IMG/VR virus record: IMGVR_UViG_3300045988_101411
Direction: 5' to 3' (one strand)
Source: a virus
Lineage: Duplodnaviria > Heunggongvirae > Uroviricota > Caudoviricetes
Length of the DNA stretch: 33,213 bases
How positions within the stretch are numbered: the first letter of the stretch is position 1; each line of letters starts with the position of its first letter. The notes beneath the pieces were generated by a model that was given only the letters and a program-made list of their open reading frames with translations, did not search any database and was not told the DNA's origin. Position numbers and translations under genes: made by a program. Of the stretch, positions 1 to 33,213 are shown one piece after another.

Positions 1-105
1 AACCGATCACATACAGCTGCATTTATTAAGGTTATCATCCGTTTCGCTGAAAAACATAACCCATAAAATGCTAGCTGTACCAGGAACCACCTCCTTAGCC
101 TGTGT

Positions 106-133
106 AATCTCCCTTACACGGGCTTATTTTTTA
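106..133. repeat. att core copy (ogr-proximal junction, attR-type)
   Basis: AATCTCCCTTACACGGGCTTATTTTTTA, identical to 32832-32859; matches the P2 att core as I recall it (revcomp AAAAAATAAGCCCGTGTAAGGGAGATT). Confidence 0.9.
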
Positions 134-194
134 CGCGTAATACAATGAAATAAAAGGATTTATTTCTGGTCACGTCCACACATTGACCACATCG

Positions 195-220
195 ACAAAA
201 AAGCCCCTCGACTGAGGGGC
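195..220 (-). terminator. Rho-independent terminator downstream of ogr
   Basis: Stem GCCCCTC (203-209) / GAGGGGC (214-220), 4-nt loop, followed on the minus-strand transcript by a U-run (plus-strand A-run 195-201). Confidence 0.7.
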
Positions 221-233
221 TTCCTGTTTGTAA

Positions 234-452
234 TTACATCCACATAATTTGCTGTCCTGATGGCAACGGGTGCGGCCTTACGGCGTGGACTTCTCCCGGC
301 TTCACGATGTATCGCTGTACCGACTCATAAGTGATGAACGTGGCGCTGCAATTCACGTTCTGGCACTGGTGATAACGCTCTTTTGTCGTGTCAGTGATAT
401 AGCGACTTGTACGCGCATGTGCGGCATGCTGGCATAAAGGACAATGAAACAT
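234..452 (-). CDS. ogr: Ogr late-gene transcriptional activator (C4 zinc finger), 72 aa
   Basis: MFHCPLCQHAAHARTSRYITDTTKERYHQCQNVNCSATF... with CxxC...CxxC; ATG at 450-452 (track ORF is extended to an upstream TTG); position next to D and att as in P2. Confidence 0.9.
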   Translation of the reverse strand: MFHCPLCQHAAHARTSRYITDTTKERYHQCQNVNCSATFITYESVQRYIVKPGEVHAVRPHPLPSGQQIMWM

Positions 453-533: not shown

Positions 534-1697
534 TCACTCATCATCTTCTGTTTCGTACTCCACATCAGAAAGCCTGACCTCAAGCTCTAAGGACGTCGTG
601 AAGCCGCTATTATTCAGAAAATGTGTCACCTTAGTGATTGTCCAGTCCTGCTCGTCTATGACGCGCTTAAAGCCTGACACTCTGACCGGCGTTTCCGTGT
701 AAATATCAGCCCGACCAGTGGCAAGGCTGATGGAGAACTCCGCAACGCCCCGTTGCAGTTTGTCCCACTTCGCCTGAGCGGCGCGCATTGCCTGCGCTTT
801 CGTGGCATATACCGTGGTCAGGGCAAAAACGTTGTCAGCCTCACCGGCCATGTATTCACCTTCGCGCGCTTCCGGTACTTTTGGTGCTTTCTTCTGCGTG
901 ACCGGTTTCGCTTTCGGGTGCTCCAGTGCGCGCAGGTGTTTTTCTTTCTTTTTGCGTTTCAGTTTTACCTTCTGCTTTTGCGGCTTCGGGTCTTTGGTGT
1001 GTAACCACTTTGCCGTTACGCCGGTGTAAGCTCCACGGTCAGCAATCGCAAAATGATGACGGTCGCCGTCGCTGCGGGTGATGGTAATCTGCGGGATTTT
1101 TTTACCGCTGGCCGTCACCCCCTGCCCCGCTTTGAGAAACAGCAGTTTTCCCATTTTTACCGACACCTCGCCGCCGTTGCGTTCAGCAAGACGGGTCAGG
1201 AATTTCGCATCAGACTCCTGCGACTGGTCGATGTGTGGAATTTTTATTCCGGCCAGTGACGGAGCGACACTGGCTTCCAGCCTGTTACGGGAGGCTATCG
1301 CCTCAACAATCGCACCGAGCGTAATGTCATGCCATGAGCCTTCACGGCGGGAATTGAGCGTCCCGCGAAAATCTGCACTCCGGGCGCGGATGGTGACCAC
1401 ATCCGGCGCGCCCCGGTGTTCAACCTCATCAACGGTAAATTTCCCTTTGCATACCAGGGCAAAACCTTTCCAGCCGATATACACCGTCAGGACAGCGCCA
1501 CGAACCGGCAGCCCGACCTGCCCGTCGGCATCGTTCAGTTCAATATCAAGCTGGTCAGCCTCAAAGCCCCGGTTATCCGTCAGGGTCATGCTCATCAGAC
1601 GGTCGCTGATATTGCCGGTAATATCCCTGCTGTCGAGCATCAGCATGTAATCCGGCGTCAGCGTACTGCCTGCATCAAATGTCAGCGCATCCAGCAT
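534..1697 (-). CDS. D: Tail protein D (late control gene D family), 387 aa
   Basis: ORF length equals P2 gpD as recalled; synteny after U; 1-nt overlap with U stop. Confidence 0.88.
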   Translation of the reverse strand: MLDALTFDAGSTLTPDYMLMLDSRDITGNISDRLMSMTLTDNRGFEADQLDIELNDADGQVGLPVRGAVLTVYIGWKGFALVCKGKFTVDEVEHRGAPDVVTIRARSADFRGTLNSRREGSWHDITLGAIVEAIASRNRLEASVAPSLAGIKIPHIDQSQESDAKFLTRLAERNGGEVSVKMGKLLFLKAGQGVTASGKKIPQITITRSDGDRHHFAIADRGAYTGVTAKWLHTKDPKPQKQKVKLKRKKKEKHLRALEHPKAKPVTQKKAPKVPEAREGEYMAGEADNVFALTTVYATKAQAMRAAQAKWDKLQRGVAEFSISLATGRADIYTETPVRVSGFKRVIDEQDWTITKVTHFLNNSGFTTSLELEVRLSDVEYETEDDE

Positions 1698-2190: not shown

Positions 2191-4638
2191 TTAACCGTCA
2201 TGCATCATGCTGGCACGGGCGCGCGCGCGTTTATCCCGCTCGTATTTTTCGAGCGCATCCTGTAACTGGCGGTCAAGCTGTGTCCCCGGCGCAGTACCAC
2301 CCGTCAGGCTGATGTGATATTCGTTTTTACTCTGGTCCACATAAGAGCGGCCAGCCGGTGCCGTAACCGGCTGATAAGCCTGATAGCCTGCATAAGAGCT
2401 GGACGCCGGAATATAACCACCGGTGCCATACGTGGCGGCATGAGCTCTGGCGGCGGTCTGGTCAAGTGTGTCTGACTCTTTGTTGATAACACCGAGTTTT
2501 TCCAGTACCCAGTCAATACCGCTGCACAGTTTGTTGAACGCATTAAGCGGCAGCATCAGCGCGTCAGCCAGTGCCTGCCCGAACATGACGCCCGTGTCAC
2601 GGCAACGGTTCAGCGCGTCCTGGGTGGCTTTGACCGGGGCAATCAGGTTTTTAAACCGCTGCCACGCGGCCTGTAACTTTTCGCCCAGCCAGTCAAACAC
2701 CGGCTTCAGTGGCGTAAACAGTTCCCCCACCGGCGCAAATGCCGCTTTCAGCCCTTCAACCACACCGCCAAAGAATGCGCTGACAGGCTCCCAGTATTTA
2801 CGGATAAGCAACGCCCCGGCGACAATGGCGGCCACCACAGCCACAATCGGCCAGCTAATCGCCCCGATGGCCGTCATAACAGCACTGCCAACCGTCGTGA
2901 AGATTGCCCCCATTGCGCCTGCTGCAGCGATGATGGCATTAATGCCGGTGATAACCGGCCAGGCTACAAGACCAATTGCACCGATGATGCCAATAAGCGC
3001 CAGTGCGCCACCGACAATAAGGCCGATGGTTGACGCCAGTGATTTGTTTTTCTGGATCCAGCCGTCGAGTTTTAACACATACTTTGTGGCCGTCTGCGTG
3101 AGATTACGCAGTGCGCCTTCCTGTTGGTCAAACAGGTCAGTCCCCACCGCCTCATAAGCAGACTGAAACTCCTTAAAGTCACCGCCGAGGTTATCCTGCA
3201 TGATTTTAACCAGCTCTTCCGTTTTACCGTCCGAGGCTTTCAGCGTGGCGGTCAGCTTATCCAGTTTTCCGCTTGCAGCCGCTGCCAGTAAAACGTTCGC
3301 TGATTTCAGGGCTTCCTCACCAAAAATGGTTTTAAGGTATTCCCCCTTCTGAGACGTTCCCAGCTTGTGTTTATCAAAGCTGGCCTGAATCTCTTTCAGA
3401 ATGGTGAACAACGGACGCATATTTCCCTTTTTGTCCGAGGTTTTAACGCCAAGCTCTTTGAGTGCTTCCCATGCTTTCCCTGTCGGAGCCTGTAATCGGG
3501 TGACAACGGCACTACTACCAGTACCCGCCATTGACCCCCTGATGTTATTGTCATGCAGCACACCTGTCATGGCCGCTGCCTGCTCAAGACTTACACCCGC
3601 CGTCCTCGCAACCGGCCCGAGGTAAGTCAGTGCATCACTGAGCCCCTGAAAATCAGCCGCCGACTTATTCATCGTTGCCGACAACACGTCGCCCACATGG
3701 CTGACATCATCATTTGACAGTTGAAAGGATGCCTTAGTCCCCAGCAACAGTTGCGCGTTTTCTTCCATCGACCGCTGATTCGCCAGTGCCATATTCAGCG
3801 TGACCGGCGTTGCCGCCTGAATAGCCGCAGCATCTCCACCCGCTTTCGCAATGATAATCTGCGCACCTGCCGCATCATCCGCCGAGGCGGCGGTATTATC
3901 GCCGAGCTGGCGCGCCTGCTTGCGTAGTGCAGCCATTTCGGCGGAGTCTTTTGCCACTCCGAGCACGGCCTGCAATTCTGAGTTTTTCTGCGCAAACTCA
4001 TAACCGGGCATCAGCAGCTTAACTCCGGCCATCGTTCCCGCCGCCGCAATCCCCACACCGGCAGCGCCCACTGAGGCCATATTTCCGGCCAGTTCCTTGC
4101 CGGCCTGATAACGCTGTTTGACTGCGTTAAGTTTTGCCTGTTGCGCACTGACACGCGCCAGCGCGTCACGCTGCCGGTTAAGCTGTGCGGTGGTTTCACT
4201 GATACGGTTTTTCAGTCCCTGCTCATCATGTGCAAGATTGCGGGTATTAATTCCCACAGCGGCCAGTTCCCGCTGCTGGCGTTTAACGGAATCCGTCAGG
4301 CGGTTATATTTCGCCTGTAAGTCCTCCGCCGCTCGCTTTGCTGATTCCAGCACTTTCGCCTGAGCACGGGTCGGACGTTCGGTGTTTTTAAACTGTGTGG
4401 CAAGGGCTTCGGCCTCCTGCCGTGCCTTTTCAAGTGCATGACCAGTCACGGCGAGCTGTGCACTGGTCTTGCGGAATCCCTCAATACGGGATGCGTGACC
4501 GTTCAGCTCGCGCAGTGATTTTTGTGTTTCCCGGATATCCCCCGACAGCGACTTACTCGCTGTGCGGATGGATTTAAACGGGCGGGATGCCTGGTCAACA
4601 GCCCTGAGCAATACCTGTAATTTTACATTGTTACTCAT
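2191..4638 (-). CDS. T: Tail tape measure protein T, 815 aa
   Basis: Long Ala/Gly-rich coiled-coil N-half and hydrophobic central block typical of tape measures; length matches P2 gpT; immediately downstream of E/E'. Confidence 0.9.
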   Translation of the reverse strand: MSNNVKLQVLLRAVDQASRPFKSIRTASKSLSGDIRETQKSLRELNGHASRIEGFRKTSAQLAVTGHALEKARQEAEALATQFKNTERPTRAQAKVLESAKRAAEDLQAKYNRLTDSVKRQQRELAAVGINTRNLAHDEQGLKNRISETTAQLNRQRDALARVSAQQAKLNAVKQRYQAGKELAGNMASVGAAGVGIAAAGTMAGVKLLMPGYEFAQKNSELQAVLGVAKDSAEMAALRKQARQLGDNTAASADDAAGAQIIIAKAGGDAAAIQAATPVTLNMALANQRSMEENAQLLLGTKASFQLSNDDVSHVGDVLSATMNKSAADFQGLSDALTYLGPVARTAGVSLEQAAAMTGVLHDNNIRGSMAGTGSSAVVTRLQAPTGKAWEALKELGVKTSDKKGNMRPLFTILKEIQASFDKHKLGTSQKGEYLKTIFGEEALKSANVLLAAAASGKLDKLTATLKASDGKTEELVKIMQDNLGGDFKEFQSAYEAVGTDLFDQQEGALRNLTQTATKYVLKLDGWIQKNKSLASTIGLIVGGALALIGIIGAIGLVAWPVITGINAIIAAAGAMGAIFTTVGSAVMTAIGAISWPIVAVVAAIVAGALLIRKYWEPVSAFFGGVVEGLKAAFAPVGELFTPLKPVFDWLGEKLQAAWQRFKNLIAPVKATQDALNRCRDTGVMFGQALADALMLPLNAFNKLCSGIDWVLEKLGVINKESDTLDQTAARAHAATYGTGGYIPASSSYAGYQAYQPVTAPAGRSYVDQSKNEYHISLTGGTAPGTQLDRQLQDALEKYERDKRARARASMMHDG

Positions 4639-23873: not shown

Positions 23874-25163
23874 CTACTTTGTAAAAAGAGGCCTATATTT
23901 TTCAAACAAGGAGGTTTCGGATGTATTAACATCAGTGGCAGGCTGCATCTCAGCATGTTGCTTTTGTAAACGCTTAAATCTATCAATTGAATCTTTAATT
24001 AACCAAGACATTGACACCATTTCTAAAGGAGTGCGAAGCATCATTTGCCATGACACCCCCCAAATCAATGAGCTACCAAATTCTTTAAATATCATCGAAT
24101 AGTCTTCACCATCGACAAAAACAAGCTCAAACCCTTCATTCAAAGCTATTTGTTTAAAACAATCCAAATCAAGAACACAGAGAATGGTTAACTCCCCATT
24201 TATAAAGTCACACAAATCACGCGCATCATTTATAAGATTAACAAATGGAGTTAAAGGAACCCACAATTGATTATTTTTATATTCATTCAAAAATATAGGT
24301 GCAATTTTCCTCCCTCTAAGATCCAACTGTGATAATGCTATTTCCAGATCACAGCCACGATTAGATACCACATAAAATCCATCTTCTAGCCTTACCCATG
24401 AAATTCCTTTTTTCCTGCATACATTCAGATGCTCATTAAATTCTTTTTTATATGTAACTTCTGAAAAACACAGTTCTTTCCTTAACACTAATGGCATCCC
24501 TCTAAAATCTTCAGCTTTATCTTCTGCTAAAAATTCAGCCAGTCTATTAAGGTTATTTTTTTGACGTTCAACACGATCATTTTTATTTTGACTTGATTTC
24601 ACCTCCACTAGTACTGGTGCACCTTCACCAAGTAAACAAACATCACCATGCCTCATACTCATTGTAATATCATTGAGTAACGTAGGAACACCAGCCTTGC
24701 AGGCCTTCTTCACCAATTCCCATTCTTCTTTTAAGCCATCCTTCCCTCCCATATAGCCTGCTGACTCCTTGGGACTGTAATCCACAACATTATAAAAAAA
24801 ATGCTTAATATCAAACTTATCCAAATACAAAAAAGCAACACTATCACCAAACATTTTGAAGATATATATTTTAAATTTCACATCATCAATAACCTGCTCA
24901 ACACTCTTAATATTTTCCTTAATAAGTTTAGATTGTTCTTTTTTTAAACCACCTTTTCTTTTTGTTGCCTTTAGTTCCCCTAAGAAAGACTTTAATCCTT
25001 TGATCATCCTTTCACTTCTAATTATATTCCTTATTATTTTGAACTGAAACGACAACAACAAATCTGTATTTTTTAGGTTTCCCTCTAATTTTACCAGGTC
25101 TTTTTTCAAATCAAACACTACCGAGTCATGCAATTTTCGACTCAATTCAGTCTTAAACTTCAT
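23874..25163 (-). CDS. Cargo gene 2 of the tin/old-hotspot cassette: 429-aa protein with PD-(D/E)xK-like nuclease signature; function unknown
   Basis: ATG 25161-25163 with GAGGGA Shine-Dalgarno; EEWELVKK (acidic helix) then RHGDVCLLGEGAPVLVEVKSS (D174, E187-x-K189; motif encoded at 24597-24644, verified by manual translation); no Walker A P-loop; strongly AT-rich. Confidence 0.85.
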   Translation of the reverse strand: MKFKTELSRKLHDSVVFDLKKDLVKLEGNLKNTDLLLSFQFKIIRNIIRSERMIKGLKSFLGELKATKRKGGLKKEQSKLIKENIKSVEQVIDDVKFKIYIFKMFGDSVAFLYLDKFDIKHFFYNVVDYSPKESAGYMGGKDGLKEEWELVKKACKAGVPTLLNDITMSMRHGDVCLLGEGAPVLVEVKSSQNKNDRVERQKNNLNRLAEFLAEDKAEDFRGMPLVLRKELCFSEVTYKKEFNEHLNVCRKKGISWVRLEDGFYVVSNRGCDLEIALSQLDLRGRKIAPIFLNEYKNNQLWVPLTPFVNLINDARDLCDFINGELTILCVLDLDCFKQIALNEGFELVFVDGEDYSMIFKEFGSSLIWGVSWQMMLRTPLEMVSMSWLIKDSIDRFKRLQKQHAEMQPATDVNTSETSLFEKYRPLFTK

Positions 25164-31738: not shown

Positions 31739-32752
31739 ATGGCAATCAAAAAACTCGATGATGGTCGATATGAAGTGGACATCCGCCCTACTGGACGTAA
31801 TGGAAAACGCATCCGTAGGAAGTTTGATAAGAAAAGCGAAGCTGTCGCTTTCGAGAAATACACGTTGTACAACCACCACAATAAAGAATGGCTATCAAAA
31901 CCAACAGACAAGCGACGTCTGTCGGAGCTGACACAGATCTGGTGGGATTTAAAGGGTAAACACGAAGAGCATGGGAAATCTAATCTTGGAAAAATTGAAA
32001 TCTTCACAAAAATAACGAATGACCCATGCGCATTTCAAATTACGAAATCGCTTATCAGCCAGTACTGCGCCACCCGAAGAAGTCAGGGTATTAAACCTTC
32101 GAGTATCAATCGTGATTTAACATGTATTAGCGGCATGTTTACAGCCCTGATTGAAGCGGAGTTATTCTTTGGTGAGCACCCTATCAGAGGGACAAAAAGG
32201 CTTAAGGAGGAAAAACCAGACACAGGCTATCTCACGCAGGAAGAAATTGCCTTACTGCTTGCTGCTCTTGACGGCGACAATAAAAAGATTGCGATTCTTT
32301 GCCTGAGTACTGGAGCTCGTTGGGGAGAAGCAGCTCGTTTGAAAGCAGAAAATATCATCCATAACCGCGTCACGTTTGTTAAAACGAAAACAAACAAACC
32401 ACGCACCGTCCCGATCTCAGAGGCTGTTGCCAAAATGATCGCGGATAACAAACGAGGTTTTTTATTCCCTGATGCTGATTACCCTCGCTTCAGACGAACA
32501 ATGAAAGCAATAAAACCGGATTTGCCAATGGGGCAAGCCACACATGCACTAAGGCACAGCTTTGCCACTCATTTCATGATTAATGGAGGAAGTATTATCA
32601 CGCTACAACGGATACTAGGTCACACGCGGATTGAGCAAACTATGGTTTACGCTCATTTTGCTCCAGAGTACCTTCAGGACGCCATTTCTCTTAATCCGCT
32701 GAGAGGTGGTACTGAGGCCGAGAGTGTCCACACAGTGTCCACAGTAGAGTAA
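31739..32752 (+). CDS. int: Tyrosine integrase, 337 aa
   Basis: Catalytic-domain residues R...HxLRHxxAT...Y (ALRHSFATHF, MVYAHF); length matches P2 Int; adjacent to att core. Confidence 0.92.
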   Translation: MAIKKLDDGRYEVDIRPTGRNGKRIRRKFDKKSEAVAFEKYTLYNHHNKEWLSKPTDKRRLSELTQIWWDLKGKHEEHGKSNLGKIEIFTKITNDPCAFQITKSLISQYCATRRSQGIKPSSINRDLTCISGMFTALIEAELFFGEHPIRGTKRLKEEKPDTGYLTQEEIALLLAALDGDNKKIAILCLSTGARWGEAARLKAENIIHNRVTFVKTKTNKPRTVPISEAVAKMIADNKRGFLFPDADYPRFRRTMKAIKPDLPMGQATHALRHSFATHFMINGGSIITLQRILGHTRIEQTMVYAHFAPEYLQDAISLNPLRGGTEAESVHTVSTVE

Positions 32753-32831
32753 CGTTTAAGGGCTTTCAGTGGTCATTTATGCCGCTCAAACCCGCATTGT
32801 ACCGTTGAAAGCCCCTACTGATGACACCCTA

Positions 32832-32859
32832 AATCTCCCTTACACGGGCTTATTTTTTA
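32832..32859. repeat. att core copy (int-proximal junction, attL-type)
   Basis: Identical 28-mer to 106-133. Confidence 0.9.
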
Positions 32860-33213
32860 TACATAAACCATAGAGACGGATTGATCCCAGGTGACCGTCT
32901 TCCATTGACCACATCGATAGAATCTCCCTTCATAGCACGATGCCTTTCACGTAACGGCATCGTGCTCGCACAGGTTCCGGTTACGCACAGCCAGAACGCG
33001 CATGTTTGACGCTTACCAAAAAATATTCTCACTCTCCACATTTGAATGTCAGACGAGCGACGCCATGTAATCCTGCACCTTCTGTCTTCAGGTCAACTAT
33101 CTGCATTTTTTTGCCCTGAGTAACACAGAAATGGGCTGCATCATTTTTTACTATATTTTCTGCACCAGATATTCTGCCCCTGGCTAAAGAAGCTTCGGCT
33201 TCGGTGTAGTATT

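Follow-up and report, generated by a model that had tools for sequence, protein, structure and literature searches.

A probable remnant of a P2-type attachment arm beside the cyaR integration site of Escherichia coli

Introduction

When a P2-like phage integrates at the cyaR locus of Escherichia coli, does it enter pristine host DNA or the edge of an older integration? The question is raised by a window of 33,213 nucleotides (the whole stretch of DNA analysed here, IMG/VR record IMGVR_UViG_3300045988_101411), which contains a Peduovirus prophage, 95-97% identical to P24B2 and its relatives, inserted in the terminator of the small RNA gene cyaR. The cyaR site is on record for P2-type prophages under the name 'cyaR RNA': K-12 has 'ogr-D'' there, and strains W and B have P2-type prophages (PMC3032704). 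An initial annotation of the window, made from the sequence alone, noticed that the host-side flank next to the integrase end resembles a phage arm and is followed by part of a second core, and proposed that the attB had already lain inside the remnant of an earlier P2-like element, through tandem or serial integration and subsequent decay. Here we describe the anatomy of this flank, its distribution across E. coli and related bacteria, and the histories that could have produced it.

Results

The attachment core and the phage arm

A 28-nt direct repeat, AATCTCCCTTACACGGGCTTATTTTTTA, marks both ends of the prophage; its two copies (Table 1) match the 27-bp P2 att core in full, so that the site is P2 attB locI. 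This core forms the loop and the 3' stem of the cyaR terminator hairpin, and yegQ lies upstream of cyaR in homologous loci. What the initial annotation had called a phage arm sequence is, judging from its identity to the corresponding P2 feature, exactly the Int arm-type binding site. It holds the direct repeats GTCCACA and GACCACA, which read TGTGGAC and TGTGGTC on the other strand; the consensus published for P2-type arm repeats is tgTGGaCa (PMC3448106).

Table 1. Positions and supporting evidence for features of the prophage, its attachment sites and the adjoining flank in the 33,213-nt window
Feature	Coordinates	Strand	Evidence
cyaR (CyaR/RyeE sRNA)	44..129	+	Rfam RF00112, 100.7 bits, E 3.2e-19, full length
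att core copy 1, ogr-proximal junction, functional 3' half of the cyaR terminator	106..133		28-nt direct repeat; matches P2 attP core
IHF site of phage P arm	132..165		By position; P2 NC_001895 feature 'IHF' mapped onto window
Int arm-type binding site of phage P arm	168..195		Identical to P2 RefSeq 'Int, P arm' GGTCACGTCCACACATTGACCACATCGA
Rho-independent terminator of ogr and F operon	200..223	-	P2 annotation mapped onto window
ogr, late transcription activator	234..452	-	Translation MFHCPLCQHAAHARTSRY... and P2 annotation
int, P2-type tyrosine integrase	31739..32752	+	Sequence reading; int-att region 95% identical to P2
Int arm-type site, int-side arm ('P' arm' in P2 record)	32718..32744		P2 annotation mapped
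Cox-binding region, after int-side arm site	32742..32815		P2 annotation mapped
att core copy 2, int-proximal junction	32832..32859		Direct repeat with 106-133
Arm fossil, decayed counterpart of P-arm IHF region, rare long allele	32860..32889		Alignment with arm and allele comparison
Arm fossil, decayed counterpart of Int P-arm site	32890..32917		15-mer match and colinear alignment
Core-like 10-mer AATCTCCCTT, 'second partial core'	32921..32930		Exact repeat count
Inverted repeat, 11-bp stem, no T-run on either strand, part of island	32934..32966		DNA fold -13.8 kcal/mol, z -4.1
yegR 3' part (small lipoprotein, PF27694), cut by window end	33029..33213	-	Last 60 codons translated; RefSeq of homologous loci

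The flank is colinear with the phage P arm

The flank sequence that first drew attention, GGTGACCGTCTTCCATTGACCACATCGA, reads directly from the window at 32890-32917, about 10 bp to the right of the position originally assigned to it (32880-32907). Its likeness to the phage arm at 168-195 is borne out and extends further than the initial annotation had described. The 15-mer said to be identical in the two places, CATTGACCACATCGA, indeed occurs at 181-195 and at 32903-32917 and has no other match in the window at up to two mismatches, whereas shuffled sequence gave a mean of 0.10 matches and two or more matches in 0 of 100 shuffles. Beyond this 15-mer, the 60 nt that follow the right core (32860-32919) are colinear with the 64 nt that follow the left core (134-197). 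Global alignment of flank and arm, with the core excluded, scored 19, whereas shuffled sequence averaged -9.6 (sd 4.3; z 6.6); not one of 20000 shuffles scored as high, nor did any of 20000 real 60-nt stretches taken from the window. Read outward from the core, the flank presents a partly deleted IHF region, the shared pattern GGATT.AT..C.GGT.AC, a destroyed repeat 1 and an intact repeat 2. With colinearity above chance and the same offset and orientation relative to the core, the flank is a homologue of the P2-type attP arm, present as a remnant, which we refer to as the arm fossil.

The surviving features are few. Repeat 1 of the fossil reads CGTCTTC where the arm has GTCCACA, while repeat 2 persists as TGACCACA at 32906-32913, TGTGGTCA on the other strand, inside the exact 15-mer. 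A functional P2-type attP arm has two tgTGGaCa direct repeats at the proper distance from the core and an IHF site between core and repeats; in the fossil TGTGGTCA is the single repeat left, and the window allele has substitutions or deletions in the TGAAATAAAA portion of the annotated IHF region.

The fossil lies at the edge of an 810-bp insertion

Compared with Escherichia sp. E1V33, which is 94% identical to E. coli across yegQ-cyaR, has the order yegQ-cyaR-yegS and carries the yegS leader directly after cyaR, E. coli has an 810-bp insertion that starts exactly at the end of the core and holds both the arm fossil and yegR. A cyaR scan with one genome per species covered at least 120 species, with E. 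albertii, E. fergusonii, E. marmotae and Salmonella outside it; among the matches listed, yegS starts no more than about 900 nt from cyaR in 91 of 120 Enterobacterales species, and in most cases the distance from the terminator loop is 100-170 nt. At its distal end, outside the window, the island reads AATCCTCCATACTTGAACTGACTTTTT and matches the E1V33 core at 17 of 27 positions without gaps, in the register set by the flanking homology (p ~4e-4), and the strain's own core at 18 of 27; in an unbiased scan it was the best core-like 27-mer of the whole interval. This decayed copy stands 115 nt before the start of yegS, and the real core of E1V33 stands 113 nt before it. A working core at one end and a decayed core at the other are as expected for an element integrated in the cyaR terminator, and in comparison with this one close outgroup the island has the make-up of a remnant of an att-bounded element. 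E1V33 is the single close relative within the genus in this comparison, which fixes neither the age of the island nor the number of events behind it.

The initial annotation had suggested looking for ogr- or D-like remnants further to the right. None came to light: blastn (word size 7) and tblastx of the 810 bp against the prophage returned no coding remnant of ogr, D or int, only the 15-mer and one weak 19-mer, so the island is not a cryptic P2 prophage of the K-12 type. By blastn against the phage collection, the distal 322 bp of the island matched nothing except a record that includes host flank. About 60 nt beyond the yegR stop codon stands an inverted repeat, at which no terminator-like site was found. 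The weak 19-mer, GGAATTACAAACATGAAGC, lies upstream of yegR and outside the window (2243-2261 of locus L001); read in the inverted orientation, it is similar to the stop codon of the prophage ogr together with its terminator stem (18 of 19 positions against window 235-217, E 0.02); the phage collection gave no support for it as a phage remnant.

We also considered that yegR itself may have been phage cargo, a reading for which the searches gave no support. YegR matched phrog_21109 (E 2e-72), probably a host gene swept into a phage family; this family (probably) and both tblastn matches come from phage records that contain host flank, and on these comparisons YegR is without a true phage homologue. 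Against Pfam, yegR gave nothing at the threshold used. One such record, ON470606.1 (vB_EcoM-720R8, L008), runs on into the host through yegR, yegS and the galactitol-operon repressor gene. Another, AY639599.1 ('Phage TP', L007), resembles a K-12-type locus, with a 'putative protease' at the position of yegQ. Distant YegR homologues (L129-L137; 44-82% identity) occur in unrelated contexts, namely between IS elements in Enterobacter, by UDG-family and formate dehydrogenase genes, and by a glutaminase gene and ivy, which fits a mobile orphan lipoprotein gene.

P2-like prophages that occupy the cyaR site of Citrobacter, Enterobacter, Buttiauxella and one further bacterium have P arms of the same layout. 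A 17-mer of the fossil, CATTGACCACATCGATA, is also present in the P arm of a Citrobacter youngae prophage, and 16 of its nucleotides in the P arm of an Enterobacter prophage (the Citrobacter-Enterobacter pair L119/L107). These arms bear on the alternative that the conserved part of the flank is a native host element, such as a 3' element of yegR or a protein-binding site, which phages acquired by aberrant excision or came to resemble by convergence. Such an element would be in keeping with a 29-nt block (32895-32923) that is near-invariant in about 98% of E. coli genomes although its neighbours are polymorphic. The arm repeats, however, are functional phage sites that match tgTGGaCa, and they are also carried by P2-like prophages in other genera, where the host has no flank copy; moreover, the host copy sits inside an insertion that outgroups lack, and it is the degenerate copy of the two, with one repeat and the IHF region lost. 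We consider a native origin of the block improbable.

Two alleles of the fossil

The flank exists in two forms. The window and strain N3 carry a long allele found in 145 of 5426 complete E. coli genomes, and most genomes carry a short allele that is 12 nt shorter and has 5 substitutions within 40 nt (window 32860-32895 against loci L002, L003 and L005). Relative to the P2 arm, the IHF region has lost 4 nt in the window allele and 16 nt in the common one, and the long allele is, by alignment, the more arm-like of the two. The 29-nt block follows both. On its left, the two alleles diverge strongly over 40 nt, and on its right 2 nt are commonly polymorphic. The near-invariance of the block could be due to constraint or to allelic history.

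These alleles raise the further alternative that the fossil has been periodically refreshed. Core and arm together form direct repeats flanking the prophage, so a crossover between the P arm and the fossil is possible, which would cure the prophage and leave a chimera behind. An abrupt change from 5 substitutions and a 12-nt indel in 40 nt to 29 identical nucleotides has the look of such an exchange, as has the rarity of the more arm-like long allele. Yet no known phage P arm is close to either allele, the closest in the phage collection being that of P2 itself at 79%, and the same pattern can be explained by old allelic divergence or by introgression. We regard refreshing as quite improbable.

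The same flank at unoccupied sites across E. coli

The composite empty site, that is, window 1-133 joined to 32860-33213, was matched as a single place, with 80% or more of its length covered, in 4561 of 5426 complete genomes of E. coli, and the conserved block of the fossil, searched for as a 50-mer centred on it, in at least 5328 of 5426, prophage-free sites included. In N3, one STEC strain, one UPEC strain and BL21, the fossil is present at the unoccupied site, and yegR (-) and yegS (+) come after it. The presence of one and the same flank at prophage-free sites throughout the species makes it the normal flank of the E. coli cyaR (locI) attB, and an old scar in place of a recent event in this strain. 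Between the fossil and yegR, UPEC 82.0311 (L003, about 1800-1970) has an extra insertion of about 170 bp, which recurs in many genomes (places of 645 bp).

K-12 has cyaR, core, P arm, ogrK and D' in succession, then ...GAACTCTGCTAC joined to ACGGGCTTATTTTTTT, and then the same fossil, with the D' remnant meeting the right core at ...CTAC/ACGGGCTTATTTTTTT. The fossil lies distal to ogrK-D' and is thus the older of the two. A later P2 thus entered the same core in K-12 and lost its DNA from a point inside D as far as the middle of the int-side core. The deletion that joins D' to mid-core can be read at 2230-2260 of the K-12-type locus L004 (...GAACTCTGCTAC/ACGGGCTT...; compare window 700-760 and 32780-32860). 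The D sequence at this junction resembles the core at about 7 of 11 positions, counted by eye, and the junction points to a recombination event at a secondary site, for which Int or microhomology may have been responsible.

The locus has gathered other insertions as well. Small cyaR-yegS insertions in a Pseudescherichia metagenome-assembled genome (L040) and in Enterobacter chinensis (L023) have a decayed core-like copy 106-110 nt before yegS, and an Enterobacter-like metagenome-assembled genome (L014) has CACTGACCATCTCGA, which resembles a P arm, at a distance of 64 nt from where the terminator loop starts; att scars seem to have accumulated repeatedly at the cyaR-yegS junction. E. coli 30EVA2 (L138) carries a different P2-like prophage at cyaR, with a TM2-domain gene between the att site and ogr, a spot that corresponds to a cargo position beside the P arm.

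The distribution bears directly on the proposal of recent tandem or serial integration, in which the present phage would have landed in a decayed prophage of its own lineage in this strain. The arm homology on which that proposal was built is real, and K-12 demonstrates such decay at the very same site. Against it stand the same flank at the unoccupied sites of N3, STEC, UPEC and BL21 and in the 4561 genomes with the composite site, together with the block in nearly all genomes and the lack of any ogr or D remnant on the fossil side; a tandem or double P2 lysogen is likewise not what the window holds, its flank being that of unoccupied sites. We therefore abandon a strain-specific event as very unlikely, and retain the broader part of the initial proposal, an attB inside the remnant of an earlier P2-like element, to which the colinear arm homology, the island edge and the decayed distal core all point. 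It had also been held that finding this flank in related strains free of P2-like elements would speak against a remnant. The flank is indeed found in such strains, but that does not validly refute a remnant which is older than the diversification of E. coli.

A core-like 10-mer beyond the fossil

The initial annotation had described a second partial core next to the arm sequence. Its 10-mer, AATCTCCCTT, occurs three times in the window, starting at 106, 32832 and 32921 (shuffle mean 0.03); the third copy is present as claimed, though at 32921-32930 and not at 32910-32919. The exact 50-mer that contains it occurs in 2562 records and that with the variant AATCCTCCTT in 1851, and other variants exist; of the 17 nt past it, 5 match the core, counted by eye. 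The partial core is thus real as a 10-mer, but it varies from strain to strain, and the core sequence stops there. An intermediate integration may have left it as a decayed int-side core, in which case the arm fossil and yegR would stem from two elements that arrived one after the other; it may also be a deletion junction or a coincidence. A displaced cyaR-like hairpin was also considered for this position and rejected, since its stem would have 5 bp at most, as judged by eye.

The view that chance is an unlikely source of the flank holds for the arm, which no control out of 20000 equalled, and does not carry over to this 10-mer taken alone, for which coincidence is a possible account. For the flank as a whole, chance likeness of two AT-rich, low-complexity intergenic stretches deserves next to no weight: the exact match is short at 15 nt and the 10-mer varies among strains, but the shuffled and real controls for 15-mer and colinear score speak firmly against it, as does the shared offset from the core, a property that was not selected for.

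Discussion

We conclude that in 32860-32919 the ogr-side arm of a P2-type attP most likely survives as a molecular fossil, left by an earlier P2-like integration into the same cyaR core. The conclusion draws on the homology and its register, on the occurrence of the sequence throughout E. coli, on the insertion that outgroups lack and on the core-like copy at the distal end. Weighing against it are the degree of decay, with one of two arm repeats left and the IHF region largely gone, the match of the distal core at 17-18 of 27 positions, and the searches of the island, which gave neither a coding remnant of a P2-like phage nor a true phage homologue of YegR.

The order of events that we propose, with transfer from phage to host, would run as follows. 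In the ancestral state, yegS would have stood directly after cyaR. One or two elements would then have integrated in the cyaR core, whereupon the phage-borne core became the cyaR terminator and the displaced distal core, now just upstream of yegS, began to decay. Internal deletions would have removed nearly all of the inserted DNA, leaving about 60 nt of arm by the working core and about 750 bp that now include yegR; the arm fossil and yegR may derive either from one element or from two. Selection on cyaR would have kept the proximal core intact, so that a perfect attB, P2 locI, was retained and could be reused by later P2-like phages, of which the ogrK-D' remnant of K-12 and the intact prophage of the window would be two instances. 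The 3' stem of E. coli cyaR, ACACGGGC, equals the P2 core, whereas E1V33 and most other genera have ACGCAGGC or ACGCGGGC, and the working end of cyaR may accordingly be phage-supplied.

The fossil is probably without present function, save possibly for one residual Int arm-type site: repeat 1 and the IHF region are lost, there is no gene in it, and the nearby inverted repeat has no T-run, so that nothing suggests a current role. It is also conceivable, if unlikely, that the fossil is not inert and that the empty locI is a composite, attL-like site at which P2 Int would bind TGTGGTCA, about 50 nt from the core. Such binding would add to the strong preference of P2 for locI or to poor P2 excision, and the near-invariance of 32895-32923 would then reflect Int binding or another constraint.

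If the fossil is what we take it to be, what P2 meets at its textbook primary attachment site in E. coli is the edge of an older, near-erased integration in place of pristine host DNA, and the same insertion houses the orphan gene yegR. Where an sRNA terminator serves as an att site, successive phages would recycle it and leave scars, of which this locus is a small and clean example. The locus also illustrates how prophage-boundary callers and phage protein families can be misled, yegR having entered two 'phage' records and probably one PHROG family. In a literature search that covered part of the P2 literature, we found no prior description of a species-wide arm fossil or of yegR in an att-bounded island. 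The kind of trace is nonetheless familiar, both as a prophage remnant at an att site and as an sRNA 3' end regenerated by an incoming element, and the fossil reveals no new mechanism.

Three known systems place the fossil in context. The first is the P arm of P2 attP (NC_001895, features 24293-24357), with which the fossil shares the order of elements, the spacing from the core, one repeat (TGTGGTCA) and an identical 15-mer; it differs in its destroyed repeat 1 and its substituted and deleted IHF region, and whereas the P2 arm is followed by the ogr terminator, the fossil is followed by host or island DNA.

The second is the cryptic P2 remnant of K-12, the ogrK gene and D' pseudogene at cyaR/locI, reportedly described by Barreiro and Haggard-Ljungquist in 1992. 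Core, orientation and logic are the same in both, the ogr-side end being kept by the working core and the int side deleted. The K-12 remnant, however, is about 620 bp long, 97% identical to P2-like phages, encodes Ogr and is specific to its lineage, whereas the fossil is about 60 nt long, has an identity of about 70%, encodes nothing and occurs in about 98% of E. coli.

The third is the general habit of phages and islands of integrating in the 3' ends of tRNA, tmRNA and sRNA genes, whose original 3' end is displaced and replaced by one that the element brings along. The cyaR locus shows the pattern expected of such integrations, here with an sRNA as the gene: the working half of the terminator is the P2 core, and the decayed copy lies 115 nt before yegS.
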